Source of the DNA: Amoebophrya sp. A120 | Taxonomy: Eukaryota; Protista; Dinoflagellata | Reading direction: 5' to 3' | Assembly (NCBI GenBank): GCA_905178155.1 | Contig: CAJINV010000016.1 | Location: forward strand, 124,001-188,000 | DNA length: 64,000 nucleotides | Shown: piece by piece, positions 33,977 through 50,400 of the stretch | Layout of the letters: the number at the start of each line of letters is the position of its first letter | Position numbering within the stretch: the first letter of the stretch is position 1 | Notes under the pieces: model-generated | Seen by the model: the letters and a program-made list of their open reading frames with translations, nothing else | Databases searched by the model: none | Told to the model about the DNA's origin: nothing | Position numbers and translations under genes: made by a program

Positions 33977-34974
33977 GGCGGTCCGTGTGTAAGTAGAAGT
34001 CCTCCTGGTGTGCAGTTAGTACTACTTCTATACTAGAGCGCTGCTTTGGTTTTTGAATCAAGTCTGGGGATGAACAGAAGTGAAGTCAAGTTGTAGTTCG
34101 CGCGGGCATGATAATGAAGATTTTTCATGTTTTTTCGGTCGTACGGAAGTATTTTTTTCGGTCGTAGGGCGCAAAGATTGATATCTTAGCCTGTGCAGAA
34201 GTAAAAGTAAAGCATTGAAAAACTACGCTAGCAAATAATTTGCACTAAAGATCCAGACGAGCCTATCCCTATCAGTGCAGCCGCGACGATACTTGCATGC
34301 AGAACAGGGGTGCGAAAGATTACCGAGGATTTCAAATCAAGTTCAAGACCACGCTATGAGTTGTCGTGTGGTCAACAAACCGAACAAAGTTCTTTTCATT
34401 TGAGTTCTATTTGAGCAGACCGACATCAGTAGGCAGCTGTTCCACATTGACCGACAAGTTAGCAGACGAAGCAAGGACTAGGAGAAGCTAGTACGGCAAG
34501 AATACGATGACCAAATTCTTCGCGGACGAGCTGACGGTGACCGAAAGGTCCTCCGCGAGGACGTGGACATAAAACCGAACTTTTCATCAGTATTGAAAAC
34601 GAACAAAACAATGGGCCTCGCAGGTCGTGCTGAAGAAGAGGCAAAATATCACTTGAAAAGCGAAAAATACACCGACCTTTCAGCAGAATAGCTGAGAGTG
34701 GTTGTTGATGAAAAGCGCTAACATTTTTTCACTTTCATGATCGTGTTGAATGATATATGCAATTCGAGCAAAACCAAAAAAAGAAAATGGGTGTCTTTCT
34801 GCTCTTGTCAACAACAACACATCTTCATGGCTGTGCGCATATGTCGTTCATCGTTTCATTATTGGCTGCTACGTGTCGTTTTGACCTCGATTTTTTGCGA
34901 AGATTTGCCGTATCAGTATCGTAATTCTCAATTGCCAGCATCCAACACCTTTCAACATTCACGTTGAGTATCTA

Positions 34975-37900
34975 TCATGTCGTCCCAACATATTCCAGCA
35001 ACATCGGCAAATGATCCGACACCGCAGCGCCCCGGTAGACTCGCGGTCGCCAATTTTGTTTGAACGAGTTCTCGAAGTCAACATTGCTACTGGTACTATC
35101 GACCACCACCGGCCTCACATAATAATAATCCACCCGCGCGGTTGACCACACAGTCATCTTCGGCGGTTGCAAATCACACAAATCAAAGCAGTCTCGGAAC
35201 CCCGTGTCCCCCTTTTCCAAAAACTCACACACGTTACTGTTGAACGGCTTCGGGAATCTGGCAAGCCGGTCGGCGTCGTACTCGCATTTTTCCTTGTTTT
35301 CAAGAGCTATCAAATGTAAAAATGTCTGGGTCTGGAAGAGTCATGCTGTTTTTGCATGACACAGAAGGTCTGGCATGGAAGCTCTAGCATCACAGGTTTC
35401 GAGAACCTTCCGCAATGCCGAATCCGCATGACAAGTCCCCTATTTTGCTGACAAAAAGTTGGAGCTTTTGCTAGGTAAGCATGAGAGACTTTTCTGTGTT
35501 CTGAAATACGCATTACAAGCAGTGGATGACTGTGAACGCAGCTGGATGACTGTGACCTGGCTCGTCTTCGATGGGCAGGCGGATGACTGTGACCTGTCTC
35601 GCCCATCAAGATCCCTAATCCGTAGCCCCTAGACGTTGCCTGGCCCGCGAATGACTCCACGGCAGCCGGATGTCCGTGACCTGGTTATAAAGGGCTTCGT
35701 CGATCGATTGTGCCACTAGGGCCTTGTGTTCCGGCTACTCCGGATCGCAATCGATGGAGGGCGGGACCTGCACCGGCGACAGGCGCTATCCAACCAACCA
35801 ACTAACAAGTTGCAATCTTCCAGACCCAGACATTTTTGCATTTGATAAGAACCCGCAGCGCGTTCAAATCGCCACAAAGGATGTCGAGGGTGGTTGCTGT
35901 AGATGTAGTTCCGGTGGACTTCTTTTCTGCATCGGAAGTTCTTGTTCCAGATGACGTTCTACTTGATGAAACTGCTGGTTTTGATATCCCTTTGTCCAAC
36001 CTCCCGACGATCTGCTTCGCCTGTTCCAAAGCCACCTTTCCCTCCAAATCCCAAATTTCCAGATGCGTGCCAGTCACTCGCAGATTCAAATCCTCCGTGA
36101 TTTTCACAAACCCGGTCGATACCGCGGACCGGTCCTCGTGCGGCCGGTAGTTTCTCGCGCCTGCCATGTGCAGAATGAAGGGCGAATTCGGTAGTTCCTG
36201 ACCGTTTGTATCAATATCACCACCAAACTGCATCTTCCTCCTGGACAAAATCACGTTTCCGAAAAACGCGCCCCGCAACTTCATGTGCCAATCCCATTTT
36301 GTGGTGTTCCCGTACAGGAAAAATTCGTAGCCGCAATCCTCCCGCATTTTTTTCTCGAAGTTCTGTTTCGTCAAGTACGGCCATAACAGCATGGCTTCGT
36401 TCAACACCAAAATGTTGCAGTCCAGTAGCTTGATCTCGTTGATGATTTTCTGAATGTCCAGCTGCCCGTGAACCGTGTGCCAAAATTGAATGTTCCACAC
36501 ACCTAAGCGGAATTTCGCTTTTCCCCTCGCGGTTTGCAGGTCCAGCGGAGAGGTGTAGTAGATTTCATCGGTTTGCTTTGTATTTTCCTTTGAACCTTCA
36601 CCTTCACCTTCTGCATCACAAGTTTCGCTGGGCGAAAGTGACCCCGACTGGTTTTCTGCCACGAACCTCAAAAACTCCTCCGTTAGTTCCTTTCTCCCCC
36701 GTATTTTCGGCGCCCACGGACCGTCGTAGAGCCGGATTCGCAAAATCCCAATAATCTCCACCTTCGAGTTGTCGTAACACACGTAAATCGGGCACTCCCG
36801 GCCCTCGGATCTTGGTGTGAAATTCGCGGTTGTAACGCCGGTCACGTGGGATGATGAACAGGATTCGTGATCCGCTTTCAGCAAACAGACAAACACCCAG
36901 CCTTCGCCGGAAAAGCAACTCGCGGCGTCAATGTCGGAGGCGAAGTACGTGACCTTCCCGATCTGCCCCAGTTTGGGCTTGAAAAAACCGGATTCTTTGT
37001 TGTTTTGGAGGATGGACCAGCAGGTAGACACGGACGTGCCGTGGAAGGCGATGGTGTGGCTTGGAGAAGAGGTACTAAATTCTGTTCCTGTTTCCGCATC
37101 ACAACTTTCATCTGTTCCGAGGCTACTACTTGATGGTAAGGCTACAATTCCTGCTCTCCCCTTCCAATCCTTCACCATGTAAACCTCTTGGATCCGCTCC
37201 AGCGTGCCGTCCGGATCAGCGGTGGAGAGGAAGCCTTGCTTTCTTGGGCCGAACCCGCTTTGGAGGAAGGTTAACGCGGGTGCAGAAGTGCTGGTGTTTT
37301 TTTCTTTCTCGTTTTCTTCTTGCGTAGTTTCAGTTTCTCTTGCTGGTGGCGCTGCGGTTCGAGCGACTTTGACCACGAAGGGCCTCAATCCGAAGAAGAT
37401 CATGGGCGCCACGTGCTCACCGACGAAGAGGAGGAGGTGTCCCAGGTAGAACGCACGCCAGATGATGAAAACAGCGGTGAGGCCTGGAAGAAATTAGATT
37501 TTTAGAAAATTTGAAAAGTACGACGTTCTTTCATTTTTGATACTTGGTAGTAGTACAGCAGCGGCAGCGCTCTGTATCACGGAAACATGATGAAACAAAA
37601 TCCAATACAGAACCATAAGTATGAAGCGCAGCACAAAAATGAGCTCTACCGCTTCCCCCCGTCGCGAACAGTTCCCCTAGAAAAACCTTCCCGATCAACG
37701 TGTACAGCCAGCAGACACCAATGGTCACGTCGTGCATAAACCGCTGCCTGCGGAAGGACCGCTGCTCGAACAGGGTCAAGAAAAACCACATGTACAGCCG
37801 GTCGAGGACGTTGAACAGCAACAATCCGTACACGATGAAGAGCCAGGAGTTCCGATCCCTTCTGTCCACGAGTAAAAAGGGGTAAATCAGGTTGTAGAGG

Positions 37901-39363
37901 GTAAATCCGAAAATCTTCGGACCTCTCGTCTCAACCGACAATTGTGGGATGGAATGAAGGAGTGTCGCGAGGTCCTTATCTGCGTCTGGGAGCTGTTTAT
38001 TTGAGGAGGCATTTTTACCCGTAGTCATTCCGTCGGTGTTACTGCTCGTCAAAAACGCTTTCTGCAAGTATTCGTCCACGTCTTTTTGTATTTTCCTCGC
38101 ATCCTTTGCGGAGAACTGCCCGGTTTCTGCCACCTTCTTCATGTAATCCCGGATGACATGTTCTTGATTCTGACCGATGGCACCATCTGTAGTAGTTGAG
38201 CCTCCCTGGTGCATACCAGAAACAGATCCGGGTGGCAGGTCCACCATTTCCCGCCACAATTTCTCTTCCCCAATCACCTCCGATCGGTTAAAAACGCGCT
38301 CGAAAACCGCGCTTTTCTCTTCCAAAATCTTCCTGCCCAACTCCTCCGGCAAAACCTTCTCGTCGTTTTTCGCAGCAGTGTTTTCGTGCCCGTGAGTCCG
38401 CCCGAGAAAGTTCGCGATGTTCGTATGATAGTGCACAACTCCCCCTCCCCCTCATTTGTCATGCAAAATACCCAATCCACCCTTTGCCTCTTGGCACTGT
38501 GTGCATGACAAGTTCTGGTAGCCCAAATAGCACTATACTCCAGCGCAAATCTGTCATGCAAAACCGGCACTCTTGCTGATGCTTGTATTGCCGTTCGTGC
38601 TACACAAATGAGGGGGAGGGGGAGTTGTGCACTGTCATAGTTCGCCGGTAGGATGCTGAAAGCCGGGCAGGCGAAGGCCGCGAGGTTCTCGATATGCCAT
38701 GTAAATTTCCCGTATATGTACAAAATGCATGACAATTTTCGCTAACTTGCGGTGTCCAACTTGTCATGCTAGACCAGGATTGAAGGCAAGTTTTGTCATG
38801 CAGAGACTGCATTTGTACGTGTACTTACGGGAAATTTACTGTGGATACTCGAGGCCCATCTTCACCGGGAAGTGCTGCTGCACCAGGCCGAAAAAGGTCA
38901 AGGCGTAGATGGTCGTGACAAGCAACGAGTCGCGCTCGGGGGAACTGGTGGCAAGCACGATTAAACCGTAGGTCGGGAGGAGGAGGAAAATGTTGAAGTA
39001 CAGTTGTGAGATGCCAGCGACAAGGTTTAGGTAGCTGCTTGAAGACGACTTTGCTGTCGGTCGTGTCGGGTGCTTTGATGCTGGCTTGTTCTTGGTCGTG
39101 TCACCTGCAGCTGGTGTGGAAGGTGCAGTCGCCACTTCATCTGCATGAAGATCACCTCCACCCACAGTCACGATCTCTTCTCTTTCGAAAATTGTCTTCC
39201 ACGCAACCATCGCCGTCGTCGTCAACACGAGCACCGCTAAAATATGCTCCGGCGCGGCGAGAAGTTCGTTGAAAAGCGATTTTAGGTGCGAGTCCCACAT
39301 ACTTGCCGCCAGCGCACCGTAGCAGCAGGTCGTGAGAAGGGTGGCACCGGGGAAGTCGCCCAT
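34975..39363 (-). CDS. Multi-TM protein fused to a PARP-like ADP-ribosyltransferase domain and an exonuclease/endonuclease/phosphatase (EEP) domain
   Basis: Joined through introners 38693-38847, 38424-38639, 35308-35847 and GT-AG intron 37484-37649. ART motifs: AFHGTS, GKVTYFA, IYVCYD. EEP motifs: GVWNI, LVLNEA, GNVILSR, GTHL, CGDLN, RVDY, SDHLP. Confidence 0.7.
35308..35847. mobile_element. Introner, family A, with a nested insertion
   Basis: TIR; flanks AGAGC/AGAAC; removal gives GDLNALRVL|ENKEK. Confidence 0.85.
35520..35804 (+). mobile_element. Nested SINE-like or truncated non-LTR insertion
   Basis: Flanked by duplicated ACAAG; internal GGATGACTGTGA repeats; ends in a CCAACCAACCAACTA tail. 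Confidence 0.55.
38424..38639. mobile_element. Introner, family C
   Basis: TIR; TSD GTTCG. Confidence 0.9.
38693..38847. mobile_element. Introner, family G (TAT....GTAAATTTCCCGTA TIR)
   Basis: TIR; TSD CTCGA. Confidence 0.85.
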
Positions 39364-39841
39364 TCTTATTCGTTGAGTTCAAACCAGATAAGGATGTGAA
39401 CGAACAAGGCAAAGGAACGAAGAGACCGTCTTTGTTGCTATGTGTTGATCCCGAATAACTACATCCGATGGCTTGTGCATCAGCGGTGAAATAGCGATGG
39501 AAGAAGTGGGACCGACTTAGTAGACTTACATTAGTGATTGAAGAAAAGACAAACTTCACATGAGAGGCTGCACAGTCACAGACTTACACATTATATTAGT
39601 GGCTGCATACGACCGCTCCACCCAAAAAACTCTCCGAAGACCTGCTCTATGAAGTTCCATCTATCTAACTCACTGACAGTGACTCGCTCGGCAGAAAAAA
39701 AAGATCTTGGGGACATCCAAAAAAAGTCTTTGGGTGTTGAAAGACACGACCTCCGGCAAACGCGGCCGAAAGCTGAAGCAAAATTCCGTCTTCGCAGAGG
39801 CAGAATGTAGCTGTACTCTTGCAATTCGTTTTAATATTTCG

Positions 39842-40423
39842 TCACAACCTCAGCAACCTGTGCATCAGCTGGTGCGAGCTTTGGTAGTGTGCCAAATCTA
39901 TATCACCTTTTTCGTCACTTTGCAAGGTAACCTCCAGAACGTCAAGGTGTTGCAAAGGTGCTACGTCGTTTGTGTTTGTGCTTACAGGTGGAAGAACTCC
40001 TTTTTCTGATGTTGCTGCAGAGTCTGGTATAGCATGACTCGAAACTCCATTGGTACCACCATCCGCTGCAACAGCAGCGAGCTCCTCAGGGGACAAAGAT
40101 CCTTCCACTCCAGCATCCACCGTAGAAGTTTGTGTTGATTTTTCTTCTTCTTTGACCGCGGCTGAACTCCCACTTGATTCCGCTTTCTGCGAGGTGCTGC
40201 TAGCTCCCGCGGCGACAGGAGCACTACTAGCGGTCGCAGACGATGTTGAGGGTATTGTAGAGCCTAGCTTCGGCGTTTTCAACCATTTCACGTCTAGGGA
40301 GTTTGGGTGCGCGACTTTTAGCCCCGGGACGAAAAAGTCGATAAAATCCCGCGCGACGGTGTTCTCCGGCGCGGTGCGGAAATGAAGCTTGGTTATCCGG
40401 GGCAGCAGGTACGGCATGCCCAT
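39842..40423 (-). CDS. Putative L51/S25/CI-B8-domain protein (mitoribosomal-like) with a low-complexity insert
   Basis: LPRITKLHFR...ARDFIDFFVPGLKVAHP and LEVTLQSDEKGDIDL...QLMHRLL resemble this fold; recognised by eye only. Confidence 0.45.
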   Translation of the reverse strand: MGMPYLLPRITKLHFRTAPENTVARDFIDFFVPGLKVAHPNSLDVKWLKTPKLGSTIPSTSSATASSAPVAAGASSTSQKAESSGSSAAVKEEEKSTQTSTVDAGVEGSLSPEELAAVAADGGTNGVSSHAIPDSAATSEKGVLPPVSTNTNDVAPLQHLDVLEVTLQSDEKGDIDLAHYQSSHQLMHRLLRL

Positions 40424-42596
40424 GATGGCGCGCTCTGAGGTATGCAGAGGGAAAGTTGCGCTTGCGTATGCTGCTTTCTTGCGGTATTAACGAGACAGAT
40501 AGAAGTTTAGCAGATCATTTGATACAAAGACGCCCCGTCGATGTGACGTCTTGGCTCGCGTACGAGCGCGGTGCAAAAGACAAGTGATTCCTATGAGATG
40601 CCCAAATGCATGCACGTCTGCCTCGAAGTACGTAGCAGAAGGATAACTAATTTGAGTCCAGGAAGGCAACATACGCAACAGAGTTTTCCCACAAGTAGAG
40701 GCGCCGGCTGGTTGGAATGGATACGGACATGATCAGGGGGCGGCCATGAGTTTAGTCTCTTCAAACGGGGTTTTCAACGTCCTCCTCTTCGGGATGGATG
40801 CTTTATTTCGTATGACTATGACAGTCAGCCCGCAATAAAACAAAAAGTAGCCAGTGCCAGAGCGTAAACGACTGCGAAAAACCAACCAAGAAGAGCGCAT
40901 CACATGGCACCGAAGGGGCAGGAAGCCGAGTTTGGGCGTGCGTTAGCAGTCCATGCATGCAGGAGCAAGAAAGCAAAGTGCTGGAGCGATTTTGTTTTTC
41001 TACTAGCTTCTTCTCGGCGAACACCACCACAAACCAAATTTTCCTCCCGGGGGCGGGTAGATCCGCTGCGACATGCCACAGATTGTGGCCACACGGCGCG
41101 CCCTTGCTGGTAAATTGCAAAAAGAAATTTCCAGTGACCTTGCGCGAGGCCACGGGCGGCAATATATACATCAGACGGGGGCGGCGACGCGCCATGCCCC
41201 ACTTCACTCCCGGCGCCGCCCGGGGGCCAGTACGTAGTAAGCCTAAAAGCCTGCGGCGCCAACAACGCGCAGGGCGCGCGGCCACCCGAGTTCGTCTTTT
41301 TCGGCGGCGCAGCGGTGCAAACAGAACAGAGATAAACCCCGGGGGCCCGGGGCCTTTCATGTCAGCCGCCGAAGTCTGGCGGGCCCCACCGAATGGGGCC
41401 ACAAATAACAGGCGCGGGCCTGCGCAGGCACAAGGCACCCGGCCCCTGCGCACGGAGGCGGCGGGCCGCGCAGGCAGCCTAGCTACAAATAAAAGGCGCG
41501 CCGGGAGGCGGGGGAGCGGGGGGGGCCCCAAGGCCCCGCCTGCCGCCGCGCGGCGGCGGGCCGGGTGCATACTGCGCACGCACAGACGCCCGCTGCCACG
41601 CTTAGAGTGGGCGGGGGGCTTGGCGGGAACCGGCGCGAAAGATTTGCAGCGGGCCCGCGAAAGAGCAACGCCACGCAAGCTGCTCCACACGGAGTGAGTG
41701 CGGGAGAGGTTCGGCTCATGCGTGGGGGCCGGCCCCACCCGCCGCCAACTTCCATCGCCGGCGAACTTACACGCAGGCCCGCGGGCCACCAGACGAGACC
41801 AAATAGTGGGCCGGGGGCCACGCCTTTGCTGGGCGGGCGGCCGTGGCGCAATGCCACACAGCGGGCGGCGGGCTCCTGCTATGGAAGGCCGCGCGTGCCC
41901 TGACCCCAAACAACGCGGGAGAGTGCGGGGCGGGGCGGCTCCGCCCCTGCTCTTGTCTCTTCCGCGGCAATCTTCTTGGCGCGCGACGTGGGCGCCCGGG
42001 TCGGGTGTGCAAAACACCACACCGCAACCACTGGCCGCGAATAAGGCCTGCGCCTGCCGCCTTCTGTCCACCCGATTGAATTTCAGAACTGCCATTTCCG
42101 TTGCCGTCAATAACACCACACGGAAGAACGCGGTGGCAGAATTACGCTATGTATTTGGAACACTTTACACGAACACGACTCTCCTATACGTGAACGGGAG
42201 CAGCCCCACCGTGACGTTCTGTGCTTTGACGCTCGTCTACGTCAAGTTCATTATCCTGAACGCAAAGAGCGTTTCCTCGTCGCAATGACAAAGGTCATTA
42301 TACCCGGTTCCCAATTCGTCAATGTACATTCACATTGGAAAATTTGATGTCGCATGGTCGCAACTTACTCGAGAAACAGAAGGTGGATCTATCACTTCAC
42401 TTTTGCCCCATCAAAAGAGTCGAACTAATTCGTACTAGACTCGCAATCGTCATCCTCAGTCGCTTCTACTATTCACGTAAAATTTGATTTTGAGCGGGAA
42501 AAGAACAAAGCGCTTCATCTATCGAGGACATATATTGGACGAACGCGTTCTTCCGATCTACTTCAAGACCTCCACTAAAAATCCTAAAACATCACA

Positions 42597-45500
42597 TCAC
42601 AGCGCGTCCTCCTTCTCCTCCCCACCGCCTCGCCTCCACTCGCCCATCACTTCGGTCATGATCTGCTGCTCCCACGTGTTTTTTAGTTCCCGCTTTTTGA
42701 AATGCCGTGGCTTGTCCGCAGTCTGCACAGTGAGGAAGTCCAAGCTATCCTCGCGGAAATCCACTCTTGTGATCAGCTCCACGCGTCGCAGCATCCCCCG
42801 TTTGTTCGGCTTCCGGCTTTGTCGCTCCTCCGCTAAAGCCTGCTGATGCTTTTTCTTGTTCGATTTTTGCTGCAAGACCTCTTTCGGAAGAAACGACTTC
42901 TCGTAGGCCTTCGCGCGCCGCTCATTCAGGTTCTTCGGCAGCCAAGTCGCGGACTTGCCGTTTCCTTTAGCGGTTGAATTCGCAGACGAATTGTAGTTGT
43001 TTTCAGCCAGGCCGTTCTGCACCTGGATCTGCTGGAATTGCTGGGCGGTGATCAGATTCATGGTGTCGGGGTCGTCTTGTCGCACTGGTCCAGCACCTCC
43101 TCGGGTAGCTGCGTTGTTTGTCGTCGTCTCTGCCCTCGTGCCATTCCGCACATTCACACCAATCCCCTGCTCTTGCATCTGCAGCTCCATCATCTCGATT
43201 TTCTCCAGCCATTCCAACCCCTTCTCCCTTTTCTCTACCTCCCATTCCGGCGTGAAATCTCCTATGCTGTGCAAAAGTATCGCACTCGTAGTAATTGCAG
43301 ATATGCGTGACAAATCTTCCTCCTAAGGTAAAACAGCAGTACAAATCCCACTTTTCTTCTTGCCAAAATTTGTAATGCAATTTATACTACTACGTTACTT
43401 TTGCAATGCATATCTCCGACGTAGTCGCAATCCAGCCACAAAAACTCGTTCCCACGGCCGGACACTATGAACTGCAAAAGTATCGTACTCGTACTAATTG
43501 GAGACATGCATGACAAATCGCCTTCCTTACCTAAAACAGCATTACAAATTTCATCTGTCATGCGAAGGAAATTTGTAATGCAATTTATACTAGAACTAGT
43601 ACGATGCTTTTGCAGTTCATAGACACTAACTCCTTGCGAAACTTTTTCCGCACCTCCAACACGTTCTCCGCGTGCTTTTTTCTCGCTTTGTCCAAATCCT
43701 GCAAGATCCGCATCGGGTAATTGTGGACCTGCAACACCATGATGTCAAACTTCGCCGGCGCCTCCCAGGGACAGTGAATGTACTCGATCGGGAAGCTGGC
43801 CAACTCCGGCAGCCACCGCTTCACGTAGTTTCCCTCGGGGTCACAAGACTTGGCCGCAAACACCGGGTGCATCACAAAGTTCCATTGGTCGAGGCCAGAA
43901 TGGCCCCCGTTCTGCCACATGTGGGCGTTAATGGAAACATCGGTGTCGATCAGCGTGTAGTCGAACCATTCGAAGCCGTGCTTCCAGTTCACATCCAAGT
44001 ACTCGATCAGAAATTGCGCCACCACGTGGCGAAGGTAATTCGGCATCCACCCGATCTTCCACAGCTGCACCATCGCTGCGTCTACTAAGGGGAACCCGGT
44101 TTTCCCCCGCTGCCACCGGCGTAATCTGTCTTTCGTCTCGAGAGAGCTGTTGTTGGTGAACCGGGATTTTAAACTCTCGTTGATCTTATTCGACGTTTGG
44201 TTTGCGTAGGACTGCTCTTTCAAAAGCTCTTTTTCCTGCTCGGAGGGACCGGTTTTATTCTGCTGCGATTTATTTCCTGTTATACCACCCGGTGCTGCTC
44301 CTGCTGCGCCAACCATGGAATTGTTATTTCCTTGTCCAGCAATATTGTTCGGACCTGTTCTTCCCGCGGGCGCAAAGGATCCGGTTAACTGCTGCTGTTG
44401 TATCGCCGCCGCCTATATCAACTGCAAAAGTGTCTGGGTCTGGAAGAGTGCCAGACTTGTCATGCAGGTTTTCCATGACCCATGAGGTCTGGTATGAAGG
44501 ACATAGCACGAGAGATTCTGTGAGAGTTCTATCATGCCTATCCTGCATGAGAAACTGCCTCTCGATAAGGTCAAAAGTGGACAGCTTTTGGTAATCATGC
44601 AGCACTGATTTTTACATGATTCAGATTTAGCATGACAACTTGCTTTGTTCCAGACCCAGACATTTTTACACTTGATAGCCTCCTTCTTCACGCTGAGCAA
44701 GGCGTTCGCACTGTCGTCCTTCTTCTTCCGAAAACGACTGCGGGTTTTGGCCTCGGCAGGAGCGTCTTCATCTTTATTTGTTGCAAAGCCGGAAGATGAT
44801 GTTGCAGCTTTTGATGTTGATGTTCCGCTCGTTTTAATATTTCCTGTAGCTGTTCCAGTTTCCTCCTCATCCTTCATCGTCCACCACTTCTGGTGCTCGT
44901 ACTGTCGCCTCAAACTCGTATCCGGTAAGTCCGGAAACCGCCACAAGCACCAATAGGCCAAATCTCGCCACAGAAACCGCCTCAGAAACGTCGCACGTAA
45001 TTGTCGCCACCCTTTTTCCGGTAGGTTGATCTCGCCTAAAACCAACGCTCCCCGCGCGAAGCACGTCCTGGCGGTTAACTCTCCGAACCGGACGTAGGGA
45101 CTCAACATCGCGGTGTACTCCCTATCCGCCCGGAATCGTTCTCTGCCCTCAAACAAGCCTTCAGCGAGAATCTCGTTGCAGAAAATCTCCAAGCGGTTCA
45201 ACCCTGCTTGCTCTCCCACCGTCCAAAACTTCTTCATTTCGTACGCCCAGTCCTGTTTCGCGGGATTGTCGTACTTCGGTTTGGGCTTGTTTAACACAGG
45301 AGGCGAGGGCTCAGCAACATCTTTCTCTTTGCTATTGCTTGTCGCGGCCGCAACAACAGCCATCGGTTTAAGATTTGTCTCCAAATACCGCGGATTGTAC
45401 TGCTTAAACCGACCGGAATTCCACTGCGGATGGTGCTTCATCCAGCCCGGTGCGTTCTTCGGCAGGTAGTTCAATTTTTCGTCCTCCATCATTTTCTCCG

Positions 45501-47400
45501 ATTTCTTCTTCGATACCGGCATGTTTTTCCCACACGTGTAGACATCGTAGCCCAAATCATCCAACGTAAAGGAAAAAATCGCATTCTGGTTCTTCAACCC
45601 GATAAGCTGTTTTATCCTGGGCAAAGGCTTCAAGTACTCTTCCAAATCCACAGCTGTTGTCTGCGCGGAGGCGGTCCGGCCGGTGCCGTTTTGCTGTTTG
45701 GTCGTGTAGTTCTGCCGAACGCCATTGTGATCTGCAGTACTATCGCTGTTCAGGTACTTAACCACCAAATGCTCCTGCGGGATGTTGCACACCGCTTTCT
45801 TGTACCACTGCACGCTACCGAACCCCCAGCCCTCAGCATTCACCTCCGGATCCGCTACCCACGGGGCGACCAGAAGCGATCCCGGGGTAACGTATAACCC
45901 GCTCAGGTGTTACAATTTCAAACGTTACAATAGAATATGGAAATCTGTGATGCAAGAGTGCATGATCTGGCCAATTCTCATGAGATTGCGCATGACAAGT
46001 TCCAGAGTCCCAAACCCCACTACAATCTGGCGACATTTGTATTGCAGAAAGTGGCGAACGCTCTGCGAGTCTGTCATGCTCATCAGGCAACATAAATCTC
46101 AGATTCTATTGTAACGTTTGAGATTGTAACGTTTGAGCAGGCCATATAACGTCGACCTGAATTTTGGACACGAAAACCAAGTCGAAAGGTGGTGTGCTTG
46201 AACTTGTGTTGCTGTCGTCGGTTGCAAGCAACTGGTTTTCTGCACTTGCATTTTCTTCCCCGGGTAGATACAGTATCCCAGCATCGATTAACTCCTGCTG
46301 GGTCTGGGGATCTAAATCGTCTGGGAAAGCAGGAGCGGGCGTGCTGCTGGCGGTCGTCGCGGTTGGGGTGGGCGTGTTTGGGTTGTTAGTTGTTGCCGCT
46401 GTGGCATGTTGGTTTCTTGTACCACCAGCCGTCCCAGATGCACTCGCTCCTCCACAGCTGTACTTATATTCTTCCCAGAATTCACTCGAACACTTCTCCG
46501 ACAGATTGTCACCCGGAATTATTTTCATAAGTTCCGCCCGCACCCAATCATCCTCGGAGACATACCAAGGCTCATACTATGCAATACAAACTTCCCGTAC
46601 ATGTACAAGATGCATCACAAATTTCCCCAATTTGGAGTGTGGAACTTGTCATGCTAAACTAGGATATAAAAGCTAAATTTTGCCATGCAGAGACCGCATT
46701 TGTACGTGTACGGGAAAGTTACTGTTGATAGGTACCTCTCGTTAAACACGACCCTCGTCGCTCCCGTTTCGGCGATGAGAGACAGCATCACGTCCAGCGG
46801 GTCGCCGGAGCGGATGATCAATTTCAGCCCGTATTTGGTCTGCAACTCCTCGGCGAAAGTTCTTAAGGATTTCCCCTTGTACCACAATCCCGCGCCGCGG
46901 AGGGGCCAGGGGGAGCAGTCCGCTGGGTTGTGGATGAACACGGGAAGGATCCGGCGGGTGACAGAAGTACTATTTTGTTGCTGCTTTGTGTTTTTCTGCT
47001 TGTTTGCAGTGCTGTTCGTATTCCCGGTACCGGATGAAGATGGCGCTTTACTGCCATAGAATCTCTGTTGCGACCCAACACCACCAGCATCAGATTTTAG
47101 ATGCGCGTCTGGCGGCTCGCCGTAGGCCAGTGCGTGGTTGTCGACAAAACGCATGTCGTCGCGCAGCCAGACGATGACGATCTCATCCTCTTGGGCTGCT
47201 GATGCGGTGTTCAAGCTTGCATTTTTTTCACCATTTGAAGATGTGCCTTGTTGCGGCAATTGTGTCGCTTGTGTCCTCGACGTCGTCGCTCTTCCGGGGT
47301 TCGAGTTCGTCGCATCACCCGCAACAGAGGTGGAACCAGCATCTTGGCCGACGTTTCTCCCCTGCTGCTGCTTGTTCCCTCCTCCTCGAGGGCGTGCCAT
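42597..47400 (-). CDS. Cryptochrome/DNA photolyase family protein; 5 introners
   Basis: IVWLRDDMRFVDNHAL, VFNERY|EPW, LSPYVRFGELTAR, WQRGKTGFPLVDAAMVQLWKIGWMPNYLRHVVAQFL, DPEGNYVKRWLPEL, IHCPW. Confidence 0.9.
43263..43412. mobile_element. Introner, family F
   Basis: TSD TCTCC. Confidence 0.88.
43466..43621. mobile_element. Introner, family F
   Basis: TSD GACAC. Confidence 0.9.
44416..44677. mobile_element. Introner, family A
   Basis: TIR; flanks GCCTA/GCCTC. Confidence 0.88.
45893..46146. mobile_element. Introner, family E-like
   Basis: TSD TAACG; removal gives QVDV|TPGSLLVAPW. Confidence 0.85.
46578..46730. mobile_element. Introner, family G
   Basis: TIR; flanks CATAC/GGTAC; removal restores FNERY-EPW. 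Confidence 0.8.
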
Positions 47401-50400
47401 GATAGTTGTTGGAGTTACGTATTTGTATTTTTCTGGCTAGACGTAAAGTAAACTACAAGTAGACGAAGAAATGAATAAATCCAAGTAAAATGTTACCGCT
47501 GTGCTGCGAATAAGTAGAGCTGAAAACTTCTACTTCACAAAGCTTTTAACAGCGCAATAAGCGGGTGGATTGGTGTATGAGCCAACACGACGAGAAGCAT
47601 GTATTTCGTCTTAAAATCTGCACACTTGGCAAACACCTTTAGTGCCACCGTACTTGCTTTATGCTGCAAGGGAGCGAGAGAGAAGGAGTCCATTTTCAAA
47701 AGTCTAAAAATGAGAGGCGTTCTTGGACTCACCAAATAAATGCTCCTGTTGTAAGTACTAACCGTGACTACTGCGCCAGCCGTTGCGTCGGCATACGCGC
47801 TAACGGTACTTGCCCTGTCACGCAAAGGCGGAAAAAAAAACCTAAAATCGATGCGGGTTTGGTTTCACTGAATCAGTGTTGGAACTGGTTGAAAGAGGTT
47901 CTTGCTAGGGTAGGCGGTAGAGGTACTATTTGGTCAGGCTTTGTAGAGGTGTGACGTGGTAGCTTTTCAAAAAGTAAAAGGGTGAGTGCGCCGGAAACAT
48001 ATATCAAGGGAACTGCATCTTGTGATAAAGAACGAACTTCAATCGATTTTGTTATTTTCCGGGGACAATCAGGGTGTTTTTTGTTTAGGGCAATCTGGTC
48101 CTGTGGGAGAAAATAGATCACGAATTCAAGGGGGAAACTTGAAATGACAAAGAAATAAAAACTCTCTTCATCGGCTGCAAGAACCCACACACAAATTGGT
48201 CTCGCTTGTGTGCTTGACGGAACTCACTAATACGAAAAGCATATACAACTTGTCTTGTTTCGCTCAATCAATAAGCACGGCATGTAGGCTAGCACGAATG
48301 TATGATGTGTAAGTGTATTATCATCTTCTCGTCATGGAAATAGAAGCGCCAATGCCAATCAGAGTCAATGAATAGAATCCGACATCATACGCAACATTGT
48401 ACCGAAATTATAAGCACTCAGACATAAATTAAAATGTTGAGGACCGACCATCCGGATCCTGTTCTCTCTTGTTCTTTAACGAAATTTTTAATTGAAGAAC
48501 AGGAACAATCTACAAGTTGATATGCCTCTGACGAGGACTGTGTAAAAGTTTGCTCGTCCTCCTTGTATTTTCTCGATAGTTTTTTTTCGCTTTTTGTGTT
48601 ATACCTTTCCACCTCCTTCAAAATGTGCACATTTTTCATCTTTTCGCAGCATCTCTGGTGCTTGAACTTGAAGATTTTGCTTCGGTATTTCTTTGTCGAA
48701 ATAAGTATCCAACATCTCCGTTCTTGTTGTTTTCATCGCAGTCTCGAGGCTGAAGACAAGCTGTCTCTGAATCGTAATGGTGTGTTGAGAGTTCTTTACG
48801 ATTTCTTCATCAATTCCTGGGTACAAAACTTCACCAATTCAACGATGAATGAATATCCGTGATTTACTCGTACTACACGACACACCACTAGACACCGCCG
48901 CTGTAGTCAAGACCAGTCTGCGACGCGAGCGTATAGAATTCGAGTTTCTTCGTGTGTCGAGATCCGGTATAATCAGTTGTACTAGCTTGTTGTCGCCGAC
49001 CATGGTCGCTCGATGCCGATGCGTTGGCCAAAAAAAATTTTGTTCATTGTCGCCGAGATAAGTAAATTCAAAGTAGCCGGAGGCCTTTTACTTTGAAGAA
49101 TAAATTTGGAAAGTTAAGATCAATCAGGTCAGGAGCCGTTGTAGAAACAATTTTTATGGTATGACATGTCATACTCGGCGCTTCTATCTTCTTGCCTTAT
49201 GAAGCTATAACTCCCTTGCATCAACATTTACATTTTTCCTCGAACGATAGCAAAGACACCAGGTGCGTGCGGGAGGACATCCACGTCTTCACACTGCAAC
49301 TCATCATGGACAATTCATAGGTCACAACCTTTTTCTTGCAGCCGAAAGGCGGGACGCTGTGGCTGTGGGTATAAAATCCTATTGTGAAGATGAAGAAGAA
49401 GTAGACACTATAGTTGTCCTATGATGTACAACAGCAGTGACTATCAGCAGTGACTATCAGCACTTAGAGCGAAATCCTGATAGTAGCTAGAGGTGTTTGA
49501 TGTTCTGAAAGTAAGAGACGACGACCATGCGTAAACGATGCATCATCAACAAAATCAGACTCAGACCTCACCAGTGTTATTGTCTTTATTTTTTTCTCGC
49601 TGTAGGTGGAGATGCGCTATCTTGGCATGAAATTGCACGTCGTACTATATTGAAAACTAAAATCCCAAAGGGAAGTTTGAAAATAAGCACTGTAGCATAG
49701 CGAACTGAACATAAATGTGTAAGCACATCCTGCGAGGGGTTTTTTGAAAATGAAGAAGGAAGCGACTACGTGAGTCCCTAGCTATAAAGGCCCAATTGGT
49801 GTTGTGCTGCAGCTGTTCTTTCTCTAGGCTCAACAATATTGTGTACATCTTCTTCTTCAGCACTGCAGCTTCTTATTCAACATCCTCTGTGGCGTTATCA
49901 TTATTCATCTATGACTTCTTCGTGTAGTCGTACAGCACTTGCTCGCTGAGTCGTGCCAGTGCTAGAGGGGCCTATAAGTGGCACCACAGTCCGAGAGAGT
50001 TCTTCAAGTTTATGTGTGGTTTTGGTTCAAGTTAGTAGGTGTACAGTGTACTATTCTTGCAATAAAGCTGCAGTCAGGATGACAAGTCGCTCTTCAAATC
50101 ATAATGTTGACATGATCTTCCTGACCACCCGGAACTTCTTCATCTGCCTACACTTTCAGAAATCCAGCAGACTTTTTTGCCTTCTTCTGATGCTTCCGTA
50201 AAAATTCGTATGTATCATCTATACGAAATTCAAGCCCAGTAGGTACGGAGTTCCTCTACCGAATATTCCTGTTCCTATTAATCGAGAGGGGTTACTTATG
50301 TTGTACGAGCTGCCACAAGAAAGATCATGATCAACGACCTCTGTTGACAAAAAAAAAACTGTGCGCCATACAGAATCTCTTTAGTCTTTGGAAATGTTGG

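Follow-up and report, generated by a model that had tools for sequence, protein, structure and literature searches.

A predicted multi-pass protein joining PARP-like and EEP domains in Amoebophrya sp. A120

In Legionella SidE, an R-S-E-type ADP-ribosyltransferase (ART) and an HD-fold phosphodiesterase share one chain and act on ubiquitin in sequence. Human PARP16 (ARTD15), a mono-ADP-ribosyltransferase of the endoplasmic reticulum, was described in 2012 as the only PARP-type ART (ARTD) with a transmembrane domain; the available part of that account gives it one C-terminal tail anchor and Tyr as the predicted catalytic residue (PMC3372510). PARP10, whose triad is H-Y-I, is an active mono-transferase according to the accessible text of a eukaryote-wide PARP survey (PMC2964712), and Gig2, an antiviral PARP-like protein of fish, consists of tandemly arranged soluble units that have a C-terminal part of their own, as far as the accessible description goes (PMC3617106). 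Here we describe a gene of Amoebophrya sp. A120 at positions 34975-39363 of a 64,000-nucleotide stretch of DNA (the window; contig CAJINV010000016.1, positions 124,001 to 188,000), whose product combines a putative membrane part with a PARP-like domain and an endonuclease/exonuclease/phosphatase (EEP) domain. The architecture appears to be new, built from two known folds and a membrane module that matches no family.

How does this protein compare with its closest counterparts? Like PARP16, which is also the top match of the modelled domain, it has a membrane-attached ARTD-type domain without the catalytic Glu; unlike PARP16, it carries a predicted multi-pass part N-terminal to the ART, Ile in the Glu slot and an EEP domain after it. 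We therefore rejected it as a PARP16 ortholog: its hydrophobic segments precede the ART, its C-terminus is the EEP and the third triad position is not Tyr. With mono-ARTs of the PARP10/PARP15 type it shares an H-Y-aliphatic triad, and PARP15 is the best solved ART by family profile, but here a compact catalytic domain is fused to a membrane part and an EEP. The likeness to SidE is that one chain unites an ART with a phosphodiesterase; both folds differ, and a SidE-type phosphoribosyl ligase was discarded because an H-Y-I ART and EEP residues stand in place of the R-S-E and HD-fold features. Gig2 is the sole non-family ART among the matches listed (E 4.1e-6) and has a comparably short spacing from H-G-T to Y, but the match is restricted to the N-terminal half (profile positions 35-96 of 164) and a long branch separates Gig2 from the Amoebophrya-type family in the ART tree. 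Membership in Gig2 was rejected, the conserved Gig2 C-terminal part being unmatched, and a profile comparison with Gig2 was dropped as circular, since that protein was in the alignment.

One spliced gene interrupted by introners

The gene runs on the minus strand from an ATG at 39363 to a stop codon ending at 34975, exactly where a sequence-only reading of this DNA had placed them, and has five exons that join into a coding sequence of 3297 nt and 1098 amino acids (aa) with one stop. That reading had joined three open reading frames (ORFs); the in-frame join stands, the number does not, as the gene consists of four ORF pieces (minus-strand frames 38836-39378, 37531-38451, 35802-37493 and 34975-35340), between which lie three inverted-repeat elements and an AT-rich GT-AG intron, plus a 48-nt micro-exon. 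Exon 1 (38848-39363, aa 1-172) bears the start codon, hydrophobic segments at about aa 41-59 and 121-139, and the first part of the membrane module. The micro-exon, exon 2 (38640-38687, aa 173-188), falls within an ortholog-conserved motif and is placed by a contig gap, by frame, by protein identity and by alignment. Exon 3 (37650-38418, aa 189-444) encodes a variable soluble loop and the second part of the membrane module; exon 4 (35847-37483, aa 445-990) the last hydrophobic segment, the ART domain and most of the EEP; and exon 5 (34975-35301, aa 991-1098 and the stop) the C-terminal part of the EEP.

A 3641-nt contig of sequencing run X1 aligns to 34724-35301, 35847-37482, 37649-38418 and 38848-39453, with all four introns missing, and contains a further 48-nt stretch whose size fits the micro-exon. 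In run X2, which comes from the same sample, two overlapping contigs show two of the joints each; transcript support thus stems from one sample. The X1 contig (34724-39453) and X2 (from 34708) delimit a transcribed span, untranslated regions included as far as the contigs reach, of 34708-39453. The precise absence of four introns together with a restored frame is as expected of spliced mRNA: the gene is transcribed as one spliced mRNA, also across 37484-37649, where a single transcript had been anticipated. The RNA nature of X1 and X2 is the tool's guess rather than a recorded fact, and these spliced contigs are blind to level and strand. A contig of run X5 is unbroken over 35823-38453 and retains the intron 37484-37649, as DNA would. 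In raw-read run X8, which bears the same species label, reads fell solely on introner repeats.

Three of the introns are formed by elements with inverted ends: intron 1 (38688-38847, 160 nt) by a 155-nt element with a 5-nt target-site repeat, intron 2 (38419-38639, 221 nt) by a 216-nt element with 36-nt inverted ends and a 5-nt repeat, and intron 4 (35302-35846, 545 nt) by a 540-nt element with 32-nt inverted ends and a repeat matching in four of five letters. GT-AG borders are found in none of their equivalent placements (0 of 6, 0 of 6 and 0 of 5, respectively); intron 3 (37484-37649, 166 nt, GC 0.37) is a canonical GT-AG intron. None of the four lengths is divisible by three. Introners of Amoebophrya, in the accessible text of Farhat et al. 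2021 (PMC7789003), have inverted ends, are bounded by direct repeats and use non-canonical splice sites; in these respects introns 1, 2 and 4 show no difference in kind. With direct repeats in the 3-5 nt range of that class, repeated copies and removal from the transcript, they belong to already-known introner elements of Amoebophrya.

The family of the intron-4 element is spread across the window, with 19 matches to its end motif between 1032 and 61233 (0 expected) and eight paired copies with 5-nt target repeats, six perfect and two matching in four of five letters. At 540 nt, the intron-4 copy is about twice as long as the seven other paired copies (251-268 nt), and contigs of X1, X2 and X5 join 35519 directly to 35816. 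The excess length and these joins indicate that the element probably contains a nested insert of about 296 nt. Separately, the A120 protein has a six-residue insertion at aa 988-995 (window 35290-35870), exactly at the intron-4 site, which is absent in both orthologs.

The joined protein equals P0001, the A120 sequence in the protein set searched, letter for letter, and P0001 is NCBI CAD7969178.1 (GSA120T00019338001, 'unnamed protein product'). A complete 1098-aa model in NCBI, with introns that match described introners, makes the splicing known biology; the gene was called hidden by its introns, and it is merely unnamed. Its domains went unannotated because the protein scores under the Pfam cut-offs. 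The supplements of PMC7789003, PMC9478091 and PMC6176090, the available files of which may be incomplete, yielded no expression data for GSA120T00019338001.

Domains and relatives of the encoded protein

We assign the middle domain (about aa 530-704; 36705-37229) to the PARP-like ART fold with medium confidence, an assignment drawn from profiles, the Atlas, Foldseek and a fold model, and in line with what had been read from the letters. The three motifs named there are present: HGT (H592, 37043) and YFA (Y624, 36947), which align as NAD-binding motifs to PARP16 and PARP15, and PIYVCYD (aa 676-682). The expected H-Y-non-E triad is H592-Y624-I677, with F635 and E674 as further marked residues. 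I677 (36788) occupies what we take to be the catalytic-Glu slot, because an EEP-less relative carries E in the same column; the register to the PARP1 Glu motif follows from this relative and from general knowledge of that motif rather than from a residue-level structural pairing. In seven fusions the slot holds I, I, T, T, T, V and M, non-acidic in every case, whereas the EEP-less form has E there. Three residues ahead of the slot, six of the seven carry an acid, which the EEP-less form lacks. The H, G, Y and stacking aromatic are kept in four of five full-length fusions. A poly(ADP-ribose) polymerase of the PARP1 type was rejected, the catalytic Glu of H-Y-E being absent.

Pfam gives PARP rows in all three Amoebophrya orthologs (E 0.003-0.039); for PF00644 the window protein reaches 13.9-15.3 bits against a gathering score of 26.7, and its homolog P0151 reaches 29.9. 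Among solved ARTs, PARP15 is best by family profile (E about 1e-4) and PARP16 by single-domain sequence search (E 0.68), and the Atlas returns PARP as its first match (0.96, 183 of 256 features). A model of the domain has a predicted local distance difference test (pLDDT) score of 65 and a predicted template-modelling score of 0.58, with about a third at low confidence. When it was compared with 48,161 chains, PARP16 came out on top (Z 8.2, root-mean-square deviation 3.0, 101 aligned residues), with other ART folds tied or within 1 Z; in Foldseek, 39 of the 41 rows shown were PARP-family (best E 3.8e-3). Pfam found no RRM, macrodomain or WWE in the protein. Across the three Amoebophrya, identity is 69-74% in the ART core, 58-66% in the membrane parts, 49-67% in the EEP and 25-40% in the N-terminus and loop; the ART core being the best-conserved region points to selection on a ligand site.

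The EEP module (aa 705-1093; 34990-36704), which begins with a lead-in helix and is interrupted by intron 4, retains a complete active site, as had been claimed: N775, E807, N854, H918, D983-x-N985, D1048 and S1085-D1086-H1087, ten positions that are invariant in all six fusions checked. For PF03372 (gathering score 24.5 bits), exon 4 alone scores 11.7 and the full protein gives no row, and homologs reach 24.8 and 41.5; in NCBIfam the three Amoebophrya proteins draw no row. A profile of 35 single-domain EEP relatives matches six fusions at E 1e-43 to 1e-61. The nearest solved EEPs, 3teb and 4ruw, are both uncharacterised, and ExoIII, neutral sphingomyelinase, TDP2, nocturnin and ANGEL2 all match the subfamily profile similarly (E 1e-13 to 1e-9): the EEP substrate cannot be read from sequence. 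The module shares its full catalytic set and its lead-in helix with this subfamily, the members of which differ in being mostly single-domain or ankyrin-fused, and the ART is absent from those checked. The subfamily (P0008-P0150 among the matches listed) is large, uncharacterised and mostly metagenomic; two of ten clusters looked up are named, both from Babeliales/Dependentiae, which are intracellular bacteria of protists. A full-length AlphaFold model from a three-sequence alignment was unusable (pLDDT 30.5), and complex predictions of ART against EEP, made without alignments, scored 0.24, 0.32 and 0.21 against a mark of 0.34.

Of the multi-TM region foreseen at the N-terminus, hydropathy recovers six moderate segments at ≥1.4, of which three reach ≥1.6, spread over the variable N-terminus and two conserved blocks. 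Polar residues are kept family-wide in this part (D145, R195, D394, R395, R454, H460 and H468), suggesting that it is probably more than an anchor, and it has no match in Pfam, NCBIfam, PADLOC, PHROGs or the Atlas. The loops 403-420 and 477-495 hold four lysines or arginines each; such basic loops would place the C-terminal side in the cytosol, which suggests that ART and EEP both face it in a predicted multi-pass protein.

A HMMER search of 1.84 billion representatives gave 194 matches at E 0.001, of which 27 reached 1e-10 and 7 reached 1e-30; the best 150 of the 194 were listed. The order membrane part-ART-EEP is found in five full-length proteins: the A120 protein, its orthologs from Amoebophrya A25 and AT5.2 (same domain order, 47-50% identity), the compact 728-aa P0151 and the 673-aa P0006 from an Abedinium folium transcriptome. 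P0004 and P0026 are fragments with the end of an ART and an EEP; counted with profiles that were built from the fusion proteins themselves, 7 of 151 EEP-matching proteins contain both an ART and an EEP, two of them being these N-terminal fragments. The P0154 cluster has a membrane part and ART in 389 aa and no EEP, its four members sharing the same end point. In P0151 and P0006 a helix directly behind the ART lines up with the lead-in helix that single-domain EEP relatives have, which puts the border between the two modules near aa 705. In a rapidly built tree with 132 rows (19 of 151 omitted as outside 200-420 aa or near-duplicates), the six fused EEP domains of sufficient length are split from all other rows by one branch (SH-aLRT support 99), consistent with a single origin of the fusion, although they also supplied the search profile. 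With supports of 61 and 45, the order of EEP gain and EEP loss cannot be read from the ART tree.

No A120 paralog appeared among the best 150 of 194 matches in these protein searches. Pattern scans, which detect close relatives only, found none in viral contigs or prokaryote genomes, and tblastn found none in phages; word-based homolog searches overlooked known members, so that their blanks carry no weight. One candidate relative, locus L001, proved to be a chance match inside an unrelated bacterial gene.

Possible activities and their alternatives

What might such a protein do? It very probably contains an active phosphoesterase of the Mg2+ type in its EEP domain, and it likely resides in one of the parasite's own inner membranes, its ART and EEP lying on the cytosolic side. 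For the ART we lean, by a little, towards an active mono-transferase rather than a polymerase. EEP enzymes act on phosphate ends. In the accessible text of PMC8053099, ARTDs that modify nucleic acids require a terminal phosphate, which makes a phosphate-ended acceptor attractive here. We tentatively propose a membrane-bound writer and editor pair, in which mono-ADP-ribosylation and phosphoester hydrolysis would converge on one acceptor: (i) the H-Y-I domain would transfer a single ADP-ribose from NAD+, like PARP10; (ii) it would thereby cap a phosphate- or carboxylate-bearing acceptor kept near the membrane; and (iii) the EEP would make, remove or cut a phosphate link on that acceptor. Separate transcripts for the parts were not found, nor did the middle domain point to a fold other than ART.

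Several observations weigh against this proposal. The window protein lies below the Pfam cut-offs for ART and EEP, both of which P0151 passes; Z values near 8 are common by the comparison tool's own note, Foldseek gave no match at E 0.001, and the membrane topology is read from hydropathy. No EEP substrate can be named, as the closest solved EEPs are uncharacterised. In the Abedinium copy P0006, Tyr replaces the His and Leu the Tyr while its EEP is intact; at least one fusion thus does without ART catalysis, and the EEP-less H-Y-E form (P0154 cluster) indicates that the ART does not depend on an EEP.

Some of these points would suit the main rival, in which the PARP-like domain is a non-catalytic sensor of NAD+ or ADP-ribose regulating a membrane EEP, the sole enzyme. 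The slot that is non-acidic in 7 of 7 fusions and Glu in the EEP-less form, and the Abedinium copy that lost His and Tyr, both fit a sensor, and inactive PARP-family members are reported in the accessible text of PMC2964712. However, the ligand-site residues persist in four of five full-length fusions, H-Y-I enzymes such as PARP10 are active (PMC2964712), and the acid that 6 of 7 fusions have three residues ahead of the slot could replace the Glu; we regard the sensor as a serious but doubtful alternative. It is unlikely that the EEP is instead a lipid phosphodiesterase of the sphingomyelinase or CWH43/PGAP2IP type, to which the membrane part presents lipid while the ART modifies separate proteins. 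Membrane attachment, conserved polar residues within the hydrophobic part, the match of the single-domain relatives' profile to sphingomyelinases (E about 1e-10) and a PGAP2IP-type Pfam row in 5 of 37 scanned relatives (one above cut-off) would agree with it, but the membrane part is also found without an EEP, ExoIII, TDP2, nocturnin and ANGEL2 score about equally, and two strong hydrophobic segments occur in only 2 of 144 non-fusion EEP relatives, which makes the subfamily mostly soluble.

A nocturnin-like NADP(H) 2'-phosphatase, supplying NAD+ to the ART or tuning the local NAD/NADP pool, would account for the domain fusion, and nocturnin, itself of the EEP fold, converts NADP+ to NAD+ in the accessible text of PMC6542800; yet its match to the subfamily profile (E 6.5e-10) is no stronger than those of unrelated EEP activities, and we consider this activity improbable. 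Even less should be expected of a parasite effector directed at the algal host. Amoebophrya is a marine parasite of algae that controls algal blooms, the protein is conserved across three parasitic Amoebophrya, and single-domain EEP relatives include Babeliales/Dependentiae proteins. Against this, and to the detriment of the host manipulation once suggested, the predicted topology is multi-pass with cytosolic domains, and a copy occurs in the transcriptome of Abedinium folium, which is free-living, although that single-cell library may contain parasite or prey RNA. The Abedinium lineage is sister to core dinoflagellates plus Noctilucales in the accessible part of PMC9802342. A bolder form of the writer and editor pair is the longest shot of all: a two-step modifier in which the ART would add ADP-ribose via the shifted acid E674 and the EEP would cut the pyrophosphate, leaving or transferring a phosphoribosyl link at the membrane.

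Surroundings, novelty and meaning

Elsewhere in the window, a photolyase/cryptochrome gene (PF00875, PF03441) lies at 43585-47436 on the minus strand and is interrupted by an introner at 44416-44677. The minus-strand ORF 22743-23681 matches PPPDE peptidase (PF05903) below threshold, and 40001-42000 is rich in GC (0.605, with about 0.49 in its surroundings) and carries long frames that overlap each other on both strands.

The combination of membrane part, ART and EEP is apparently undescribed. No paper describing an ART-EEP fusion was found in literature searches, the coverage of which mostly lies outside subscription papers. The accessible text of the PARP survey PMC2964712 contains 0 mentions of endonuclease, phosphatase or transmembrane partners, and term searches of the accessible text of PMC2964712, PMC9503650 and PMC12005148 encountered neither an EEP partner nor a PARP in Amoebophrya.

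What is known here is an architecture, not a pathway, until activity is shown. The family offers a natural comparison of how the job of an ART may change after fusion, in the series from H-Y-E without EEP, through H-Y-I/T with EEP, to a decayed ART with EEP, and P0154, with its 389 aa, H-Y-E triad and no EEP, is the simpler assay target. Should the two-step modifier be true, SidE-like chemistry would have been rebuilt from different folds in early dinoflagellates, with a new membrane-sensor trigger. If the proposed pairing holds, a multi-pass ART joined to a phosphoesterase would be a new kind of ADP-ribosylation unit.

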